Of a stretch of 64,000 nt of DNA, positions 33,204 to 34,457 are shown piece by piece. The first letter of the stretch is position 1. Every line of letters starts with the position of its first letter. Position numbers and translations under genes: made by a program. A model generated the notes under the pieces. The model ran no database searches. It was not told the DNA's origin and saw only the letters and a program-made list of their open reading frames with translations. This DNA is from Camelus ferus (lineage: Eukaryota), in contig NC_045696.1 in NCBI RefSeq assembly GCF_009834535.1, positions 35,962,001-36,026,000 of the forward strand. Reading direction: 5' to 3'.

Positions 33204-34457
33204 TCACTCAGGGTCAGACTTGGATGACAGTCTGGTGGATCTCCCATCTTCTCCCCACTTCTTCCAGCTTATTCCCCGTTTTCTCTCACATATAATTTCC
33301 GCATAAACTTTCTTGGAGGGGAGAATCGATATTTCCGGCTCTAAGTTCTTCGTTAGCTCTGCCACCGTCACCTCGGGTTCTGGGGCACTCGTTTGGATGG
33401 GAGGAGGAGAGGTGCTGTCCTCTTCGTCCTCCTGTTGAAGTTCAGCACAGCGAAGCAGCTCTTGGGTAGCTGGGTTCCACACGCTCACACCAGGAGGCAG
33501 CTTCATCTCTTCCAGCCGCAGCAAGGGCTTCCCCTTCACATGGAACGTGGGCTCGAGAACTCTAGGGGCAGGTTGAGGCCGCTTGTGAGGATCCTGGATC
33601 TCCTGATCCCCGAGGACCAGGCCCTGTGGGGGTATCCTGCGGCCCTCCCACAGCTCATCCAGCAGCTTGGCCTCGGCCTCCAAGCCGATGGGCCACTTGG
33701 CACTTGGCCATATTTTGGATGTGGGGCGGCGGGCCACACTGGGGGGGTTGTGGGCCACACTGGGGAGCCCCCGACCAGAGGCTGGCAGTCCGGCCGGGGC
33801 CTCCATCTTCTCGCCCCGTTGGGGCCTGCGGTAGGCTTCCGGGGGAGGTGCCGTGGAGAGTGGAACCAGAACCTCCACCTGCGGGCACACCCAGCGGCAC
33901 GGCAGGCTCGCGGGGTCCAGGCGCGCCATCGCAGGCTTGCGGCCCATTCTGTGCGGCGGTGCACCGAGCGGTTCTGCGTGCCAGGGCTTCTGTGGCAGGA
34001 ACCCAGCAGAGGGGCTAGGCGCTACGGCGCCACGTGGGGTCCTCTGCCAGATGGGGTTCTCCCTCATCCCGGGGCATGAAGCGCATGGTCTCCCGTGCCC
34101 AGCTGATTGTATATGGAATGCACTGCGGAGGCGAGACGGGGTCTCAGTCCAGCAGGCAGGGGTCAGGGAGAGAGGAGACGGGTCTGAAGGACACGAATCC
34201 AGGCCCACTTGCCGGTCCTGGTAGACTCTGAAGACAGAATCCATGACTCGGTCCAGCCGCTCGGCCAAGATGTCGCCCACCACCTCCTCACCCTCCTCGC
34301 GAGCCTTGAGCCCCACTGCCTCCGCCTCAGTGAGCCGTGCAGGCACGATGTCCCCCTGTGGCTCTGGAACTTTGGGCGGCTGCAGCTTTTCCACCGTGGA
34401 TCCAGTTCCACTGTTTCTTGCGGCCTGCCTCTCCTGCCTCGAGCCTTTGTCTGCCAT
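33204..34457 (-). CDS. C2orf81: C2orf81-like (DUF4639 family) protein, 417 aa; a dispersed, internally deleted copy rather than the canonical locus
   Basis: ATG at 34457 in a strong Kozak context (GCGATGG), TGA at 33204. N-terminus ([33 protein letters not shown]) and C-terminal blocks ([69 protein letters not shown]) match C2orf81 as I recall it. Family assignment is confident; functional gene versus pseudogene is not settled. Confidence 0.8.
34123..34208 (-). other. 86-nt GT-AG intron inside the C2orf81-like ORF
   Basis: CAA|GTGGGC ... pyrimidine-rich ... CTCCGCAG|TGC ATT CCA TAT. Splicing joins VYQDRQ to CIPYTIS, matching recalled C2orf81 VYLTQQCIPFTIS. Confidence 0.85.

Follow-up and report, generated by a model that had tools for sequence, protein, structure and literature searches.

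Retrocopies are said to be fossils of parental splice variants, a notion reportedly due to Shemesh et al. in 2006, and Soares et al. in 1985 are reportedly the source cited for rodent preproinsulin I (Ins1) as a semi-processed retrogene. Ins1 is the classic functional example of this class (available text of PMC5470649 and PMC4151081), and a semi-processed pseudogene of TMF1 was found inserted in CYBB (available text of PMC4151081). Semi-processed retrocopies are usually dead or, like Ins1, still splice their intron. The locus analyzed here is a C2orf81-like copy from Camelus ferus that lies in a stretch of 64,000 nucleotides (nt; NCBI RefSeq assembly GCF_009834535.1, contig NC_045696.1, positions 35,962,001 to 36,026,000 of the forward strand). 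This stretch is referred to as the window and provides the coordinates used below. The copy is read from the minus strand, as are all of its parts, and contains an open reading frame (ORF; 33204-34457) of 417 codons under the standard code, in which a retained 86-nt intron offsets a frame-shifting internal loss.

Like Ins1, as far as the available text on that gene goes, the camel copy stems from a partly spliced parental RNA that was reverse-transcribed with one intron kept and another lost, sits at a new locus and is expressed. The intron of Ins1, however, is still spliced and its protein is unchanged, whereas the intron of the camel copy stays in the RNA, is read as part of the ORF and is critical for the frame, and the predicted protein is heavily remodelled. 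With the TMF1 copy in CYBB, to the extent that this is described in the available text, it shares the L1-type copying of an incompletely spliced transcript with intron sequence kept; that copy is dead or disruptive, whereas the camel copy has a full-length ORF conserved in camelids. As a fossil, it records an unusual parental isoform that kept one intron and may have used a cryptic splice site, but here the fossil isoform gives an ORF that stayed open. In a literature search by title and abstract (supplements excluded), no description of a retained intron offsetting a frameshift in a retrocopy was found, and a search for papers on camel C2orf81 (supplements excluded) likewise returned none. 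Canonical C2orf81 is a motile-cilia protein co-localising with central-pair markers in mouse (available text of PMC12979858), and C2orf81 staining has been reported in fallopian-tube cilia (available text of bioRxiv 10.64898/2026.03.14.711768).

The long reading frame depends on the intron and an internal loss

A first-pass annotation, made from the letters of the window alone, had proposed that the long ORF needs the 86-nt intron to offset a frame-shifting internal loss. This proposal was borne out by tblastn frames, by a DNA alignment to seven paralogous copies from the same genome (among them the intron-bearing copies A to F and a processed copy, G, on contig C7) and by intron-bearing RNA contigs. 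Its positions were exact. The ORF listing gave 33204-34457 (417 amino acids, stop codon at 33204-33206), and the intron runs from 34208 to 34123, with the donor CAA|GTGGGC at 34208 and the acceptor CGCAG|TG, whose AG is at 34124-34123. When the intron is spliced out, the product comprises 118 amino acids (83, then 31 ending in a DPTW motif, then 4) and is terminated by a TAG at 34015-34017; when it is read in the frame of the upstream exon, it contains no stop. The main ATG (34457-34455) has a good context (GCGATGG), and the Pfam family DUF4639 (PF15479, the C2orf81 family) matches the ORF in three stretches (E 9.9e-80), its score of 269.5 bits exceeding the gathering cut-off of 27.

In tblastn with hippopotamus C2orf81, residues 1-80 and 314-603 shared one genomic frame, as expected from the proposed return to a C2orf81-like C-terminal frame, and residues 80-125 lay in another. 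About 188 central residues had no counterpart in the window copy, in line with the long central region that the first-pass annotation had named as missing; the hippopotamus region ~126-313 is absent from the DNA of the copy according to tblastn, paralogue alignment and BLASTP. At the protein level (BLASTP), the ORF keeps hippopotamus residues 1-80 (59% identity, 59% over 83 amino acids of the ORF) and 314-603 (48%, E 7e-60, two internal gaps). The second parental exon (34209-34439) contributes codons 7-83 in the ancestral frame (tblastn with hippopotamus 1-80, 59%; alignment). It is followed by the intron (34123-34208), which encodes residues 84-112, and by an exon remnant (34030-34122) that carries a copy-specific 18-nt loss and is read one base off the ancestral frame (residues 113-143; tblastn frame and alignment). 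The C-terminal 274 codons (33207-34029) are again in the ancestral frame and include, from ~33311 on, a tail not present in canonical C2orf81. The predicted linker of new sequence thus consists of 29 intron codons and 31 out-of-frame exon codons.

The junction of the internal loss (..ACGTGG|CGCC..) was placed at 34029..34030 by alignment to paralogue DNA. What is lost is the remaining part of the remnant exon together with the second intron (~160 nt) and the beginning of the long exon. The 5' side of the junction ends with a complete ancestral codon and its 3' side starts at a third codon position, so that the missing coding sequence must amount to 3k+2 bases. Since the intron measures 86 = 3x28+2 nt, it cancels this loss and brings the N- and C-terminal parts back into one frame. 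The phase of the loss was taken from these codon positions and the tblastn frames instead of base counts on copies C and F, which have 710 and 740 nt, respectively, between the junction flanks, with second introns of 158 and 167 nt. The counts gave exonic multiples of 3, contradicting the phase argument, and were rejected as unreliable, both copies carrying frameshifts of their own. A frameshift by a short deletion between DPTW and the ARGAV motif close to it was likewise discarded, as the alignment puts the 3' side of the junction ~700 nt further on. The first-pass annotation had ascribed the frameshift to a deletion. The internal loss is real and may go back either to a DNA deletion with TGG microhomology or to cryptic splicing of the source RNA. 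At the sites that flank the junction, copy C reads AC|GTGGGC and CTGCAG|ATGG; splicing there would be expected to leave a sequence that differs from that of the window in one base.

Besides the intron and the loss, the long ORF needs a third condition, namely the absence of a shifted-frame stop that is carried by all six other intron-bearing copies. This stop is TGA in A to D, TAG in E and TAA in F, at the position of codon 118 of the window copy, which has TCA. The lineage-specific 18-nt loss also removes a second shifted-frame stop, present in B and D. The initial coincidence of 60 open codons and a correct phase is in itself not improbable, because GC-rich DNA has few off-frame stops: the ORF has 63% GC and 0.024 stops per codon in its two other sense frames, the chance of 60 new-frame codons staying stop-free is ~0.23, and the right phase for the deletion is expected in 1 of 3 cases. 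The locus forms an island of 56-60% GC inside a desert of 30-35% GC, and stop-free stretches of 150 codons elsewhere in the window were limited to three short ones. A repeat search additionally showed a 21-nt tandem duplication (33723-33764) inside the ORF, in frame. Camelus has six more residues than alpaca at this site, and part of the duplication may, judging from the proteins, post-date the camel-alpaca split.

The locus is an L1-type semi-processed retrocopy

The insert extends from ~34862 to 31916 (~2.95 kb) and is an L1-type semi-processed retrocopy. This origin was missed in the first-pass annotation, as were the rearranged-paralogue source, the absent shifted-frame stop and the near-neutral evolution of the residues. 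The insert is bordered by an exact 12-nt target-site duplication, read directly at the borders as AAAGAATAAACC in gene sense, with the 5' copy at 34863-34874 and the 3' copy at 31904-31915. An independent repeat search paired 34863-34878 with 31904-31919 (16 nt, 94%, spacing 2959). The same search gave one unrelated 13-nt pair, so chance short repeats do occur, but only the target-site pair lies on both homology borders.

The parental first-exon part (34440-34862) was recognized by homology to exon 1 of paralogues B, D and E and comprises the 5' untranslated region (UTR) from an ETS-like GGAAGTG motif, a 17-nt array, the ATG and codons 1-6. Homology begins at ~34862-34866 at the ETS-like motif, directly inside the duplication, with unrelated AT-rich DNA upstream. 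The GC-rich 17-nt tandem array (34509-34834; Tandem Repeats Finder) comprises ~3.5 units in exon 1 of B, D and E and was expanded to 19.6 units in the 5'UTR of the retrocopy. In these three paralogues, exon 1 ends in TCG|GTGAGC and sits 2.2-2.6 kb upstream of the next exon, which is preceded by a pyrimidine tract and (C/T)AG in A, B, D and E and by an altered form of it in C. In the window copy, parental exons 1 and 2 are fused exactly at 34440|34439 and the 2.2-2.6 kb intron is gone. As the large intron is absent and the small one kept, the source RNA had spliced the former and retained the latter.

At the other end, a 3'UTR of ~1.27 kb (31931-33203, 90.9% identity to paralogue C) contains an AATAAA at 31952-31947 and is followed by an A-rich remnant of a poly(A) tail (31916-31929; sequence read and comparison with relatives). 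About 17 nt past the AATAAA, the resemblance to C and to the downstream regions of D and E stops, while these three stay alike beyond; the AATAAA and the A-rich run mark the polyadenylation end of the source RNA. The insert lies on contig C1, unlinked to the other C2orf81 copies, which lie on C15, C19, C2 and C7.

The 86-nt intron and its donor site

The intron was found in 6/6 DNA-level paralogues (86 nt in B to F, 87 nt in A) and is precisely missing from the processed C7 copy, which has lost the second intron of ~160 nt as well. The 86-nt segment is therefore an ancestral intron. In the window copy it is 91.9% identical to the intron of copy C. The donor, described in the first-pass annotation as weak for its A at position -1, is indeed exceptional in that the six other intron-bearing copies all have G; an A is also found at the corresponding exon end of the processed C7 copy. 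In the alpaca orthologue, Met replaces the Val that camels derive from the first GTG of the intron. Deduced from the protein sequence alone, this change apparently reflects GTG>ATG and thus loss of the donor GT.

Paralogue A (L009, C15:53298050-53301673) carries a T inserted in the acceptor of its 87-nt intron, which turns CGCAG into CGCATG and destroys the AG. Its read-through continues in the canonical frame of the next exon, a second, different route that turns the same intron into coding sequence.

The intron-bearing form is transcribed

Nine RNA runs from three studies hold part of the locus, and four of them (X1, X3, X4 and X9) were examined in detail. The runs were available as assembled contigs, which can document presence but neither levels nor absence; X3, X4 and X9 are labelled 'reproductive system metagenome', which was taken as a label only. 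Expression, which the first-pass annotation had left to be checked, was evident from contigs covering the locus in 4/4 examined runs, from all three studies. In X1, a word depth of 31.6 was reached from 177 M letters in a 2.09-Gb genome, so that the signal is not DNA carry-over. The intron lies inside contigs of three runs (X1, X3 and X4) from two studies: X3 record 5 (33855-34298) and X4 record 13 (34054-34224) span it completely, and two contigs of X1 each run across one of its splice sites, record 1 (32700-34178) across the acceptor and record 2 (34149-34508 and beyond) across the donor. A joint skipping 34123-34208 was present in the contigs of none of the four runs. No contig of X9 lies over the intron and none of X3 over the 3'UTR, and no conclusion was drawn from either. 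X1 record 2 runs 898 nt beyond 34508, and transcription may start in flanking DNA. The suspicion of an assembly indel was dispelled, as the contigs of the four runs contained no inserted or missing letters relative to the window and the layout recurs in three RefSeq orthologue models.

X3 record 8 is a 183-nt RNA contig with a depth of 46 that matches only 34275-34304 and 34422-34451, with 120 other letters between. It most likely stems from the mRNA of a different paralogue with higher expression, in which exons 1 and 2 are spliced together.

C2orf81 paralogues and the source of the copy

At least eight further C2orf81-like loci were found in the genome (L002-L022). They are located on C15 (four, at 53.30, 53.61, 54.29 and 54.84 Mb), C19 (15.77 Mb), C2 (57.78 Mb) and C7 (64.89 Mb). 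Three copies keep the central region (C15 at 54.29 Mb, C2 and C7), all of them with in-frame stops or frameshifts, and A, B, D and E have another central loss in common. Among 60 scored candidates in the genome, no intact canonical C2orf81 gene of ~600 amino acids was detected. The source is taken to be a rearranged C2orf81 paralogue, not the canonical gene. Structurally nearest to the window is copy C (C15, 54.29 Mb), with a common tail junction, the loss of a block at hippopotamus ~397-447 and a 3-nt loss; it now has frameshifting gaps of 4, 1 and 4 nt plus stops. For copy C as a possible sister of the window copy, the signals conflict. Three structural characters are common to the two, but in a tree of the tail and 3'UTR (1.4-kb region, 97/97 support, unrooted, five rows of which two are identical) the window groups with the sequence that follows E, and C with the one that follows D. 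In B, D and E, ~6.3 kb separate the coding exon from the tail and its 3'UTR further downstream. An origin of the tail junction by splicing was discarded, as canonical GT..AG signals were not seen in the present-day E sequence; the better fit is a genomic deletion of 6.3 kb in the lineage of C.

Orthologues of the open reading frame

RefSeq contains read-through models of the copy from dromedary (XP_031304154.1, 417 amino acids, 13/417 residues differing), Bactrian camel (XP_074225540.1, 401 amino acids, three differences, stop 16 codons early) and alpaca (XP_031528188.1, 411 amino acids, 37/410 residues differing), the comparison being made on protein sequences. All three models read through the intron and share both the junction and the 18-nt loss with the window copy. 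Starting from the same ATG, the ORF remains open in dromedary and alpaca, and in the Bactrian camel for 401/417 codons. The locus is camelid-specific and dates back at least to the camel-alpaca split. Older RefSeq models (P0003 and P0074) splice the intron, and P0074 follows the spliced frame up to the region in which the 118-amino-acid product ends; the older spliced models from the Bactrian camel need extra tiny, implausible introns to stay open. All of the four or five indels in the ORF lineage are multiples of 3 (18, 3, 18-21 and 3), as compared to 8/12 indels in the 3'UTR that are not (one-sided Fisher p 0.02-0.04 versus the ORF).

The predicted protein

The N-terminal 80 residues (59%) and C-terminal ~290 residues (48%) of hippopotamus C2orf81, together with the Pfam match, tie the predicted protein to the canonical one. 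It differs in that it is devoid of residues ~81-313 in their proper frame and has ~60 new residues and a different C-terminal tail. The invariant and near-invariant columns of the family are densest at hippopotamus 29-139, across the exon junction Q80|C81. An AlphaFold2 model (32-row alignment) predicts a long helix that stops at the intron border (residues 44-83), a second, short one (260-271) and disorder in the linker. A fold search with this model was abandoned, the model being too poor for it (mean predicted local distance difference test score, pLDDT, 43). A search of solved structures with the profile of canonical C2orf81 gave no match.

Discussion

The structural history of the locus, comprising semi-processed retrocopying and frame compensation, can be proposed with high confidence. 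It would have begun with RNA from a rearranged C2orf81 paralogue, from which the first intron of 2.2-2.6 kb had been spliced out and in which the next intron of 86 nt was still present. L1-mediated reverse transcription would then have inserted this half-spliced RNA into an AT-rich gene desert before the split between Old World camels and alpaca. Between the DPTW and SPSAGF motifs, 3k+2 coding bases and the second small intron would have been lost by a cryptic splice or a later deletion, and the kept intron would have restored the frame, joining 83 N-terminal and 274 C-terminal codons by ~60 new ones (29 from the intron, 31 from off-frame exon). The donor has decayed, with A at position -1 in camels and the GT apparently gone in alpaca, and the transcript keeps the intron. 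Translation of the ORF would yield a largely disordered protein in which the N-terminal helix and C-terminal half of C2orf81 are preserved. Directly supported are the retrocopy hallmarks, the frame arithmetic, the intron in the RNA contigs and the open orthologous ORFs. The best overall explanation is an expressed semi-processed retrogene with an intron-compensated ORF that is presumably translated, to which we assign a probability of roughly 0.55; the chances that the ORF has a real protein-coding function were judged to be even. A more far-reaching version, which we consider rather doubtful, holds that the locus encodes a camelid lineage-specific protein whose middle 60 residues were made at one stroke out of an intron and an exon read off-frame, and whose frame is kept by selection; the intron would by now be a fixed coding segment with a donor in the course of being erased. 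The protein would have the role of a remodelled central-apparatus component, in sperm or other cells with motile cilia, and the retrogene would have outlived its parental copy, the full-length canonical form of the family appearing decayed in this genome.

Several results weigh against a translated retrogene, and most of them would be expected if the locus, with the same history, were a transcribed retropseudogene. In that case, the 417-codon ORF would be a by-product of GC-rich sequence, two inherited frames and a lucky phase, the RNA would be non-coding or its product functionless, and the ORF would be starting to decay, a scenario that has considerable plausibility but falls short of being probable. 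Of the 417 codons, 364 could be analyzed. In the ancestral-frame parts, 42 nonsynonymous and 18 synonymous changes were polarised to the window lineage, the only changes counted here, and the resulting nonsynonymous-to-synonymous ratio (pN/pS) of 0.79 (0.76 in the N-terminal and 0.84 in the C-terminal part) does not differ from neutrality (p 0.24). Divergence from alpaca is even across the successive regions, whether in old or new frame (6/83, 4/29, 3/31, 21/232 and 3/35). Ten variant positions within the ORF were found in the RNA contigs, seven missense, two synonymous and one nonsense; the latter (33254, codon 402, G402*) occurs in X3 and X4 and matches the 401-residue Bactrian form. The conserved block is kept only to residue 80-83, and its continuation C81-L139 is replaced by intron-encoded and frame-shifted sequence, the structure model is of low confidence, and a leader starting in the flank would hold seven upstream ATGs. 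In simulations of neutral substitution, no new stop arose in 0.05-0.36 of the trials for 40-100 substitutions. The copy was, moreover, picked for its long ORF among at least eight copies, and a stop-free frame is cheap at 63% GC and the off-frame stop density given above. The retropseudogene explanation has to contend, on the other hand, with an ORF that is open in dromedary and alpaca and over most of its length in the Bactrian camel, with ORF indels that are all in frame while the 3'UTR and paralogue C collect frameshifts, with robust transcription, and with the decay of the parental-type copy C but not of the window copy. Taken together, the frame is kept while evolution at the residue level looks neutral.

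Two further explanations concern the RNA and the origin of the locus. The working product could be the spliced message, encoding the 118-amino-acid protein with most of the conserved N-terminal block, and the intron-bearing RNA its precursor. GT and AG are intact in the window and accompanied by a good pyrimidine tract, near-invariant residues past the exon junction are kept in the spliced frame, the older models P0003 and P0074 had spliced the intron, and a minor spliced form is possible given that contigs show presence only. With no intron downstream of its stop, such an mRNA would also not be a target of nonsense-mediated decay dependent on exon junction complexes. We nevertheless regard this explanation as improbable: the contigs that span or cross the intron in three runs include no spliced joint, the A at donor position -1 sets the window copy apart from the intron-bearing paralogues, the GT was, judging from the alpaca model, lost in that species, the spliced frame lacks six residues of the conserved helix, and the older models needed implausible further mini-introns. 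A segmental duplicate made at the DNA level would be expected to carry the intron, as this copy does, and paralogue C shares the tail junction and two other structural losses with it. Such an origin is hard to reconcile with the target-site duplication, a poly(A) remnant where the homology stops, the exact removal of the upstream intron and the 5' homology that stops at the duplication. An assembly artefact is at odds with the agreement of RNA contigs from three studies and three RefSeq orthologues with the assembly, and these two possibilities together were considered highly improbable.

The translated-retrogene reading would give the locus some general interest, as its retained intron holds the reading frame together, ~60 codons are without coding ancestry, and the open arrangement persists since the camel-alpaca split. 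If the protein is real, it provides a clean, datable case of new coding sequence gained from an intron via frame compensation, and of a retrogene replacing a decaying parent in a cilia/sperm gene family. If it is not, the locus cautions that a GC-rich expressed retrocopy can carry a 400-codon ORF for tens of millions of years, and that such an ORF enters RefSeq as a protein despite little residue constraint.

Repeats at the insert and additional C2orf81 copies

The 5' flank of the insert (34863-35406 and 35214-35680) contains an old dispersed repeat (35214-35680, no strand assigned; at least 40 genomic copies with 67-83% identity), which represents a possible source of a promoter. In the distal 3'UTR, a very abundant short repeat (~32250-32440) gave 2589 first-look candidates genome-wide; it is probably a short interspersed element that was already present in the parental 3' region. 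Among the additional copies, L031 (C31:3161286-3165319) and L029 (C15:54834045-54838073) are 100% identical over 1417 aligned bases, so that the C15 region is probably present a second time as C31, unplaced. The processed, intron-less C7 copy G (L011/L014) goes back to an RNA whose second intron was spliced at an acceptor 13 nt before the one expected from the hippopotamus protein, and a T-rich insertion of ~49 nt was observed in it.

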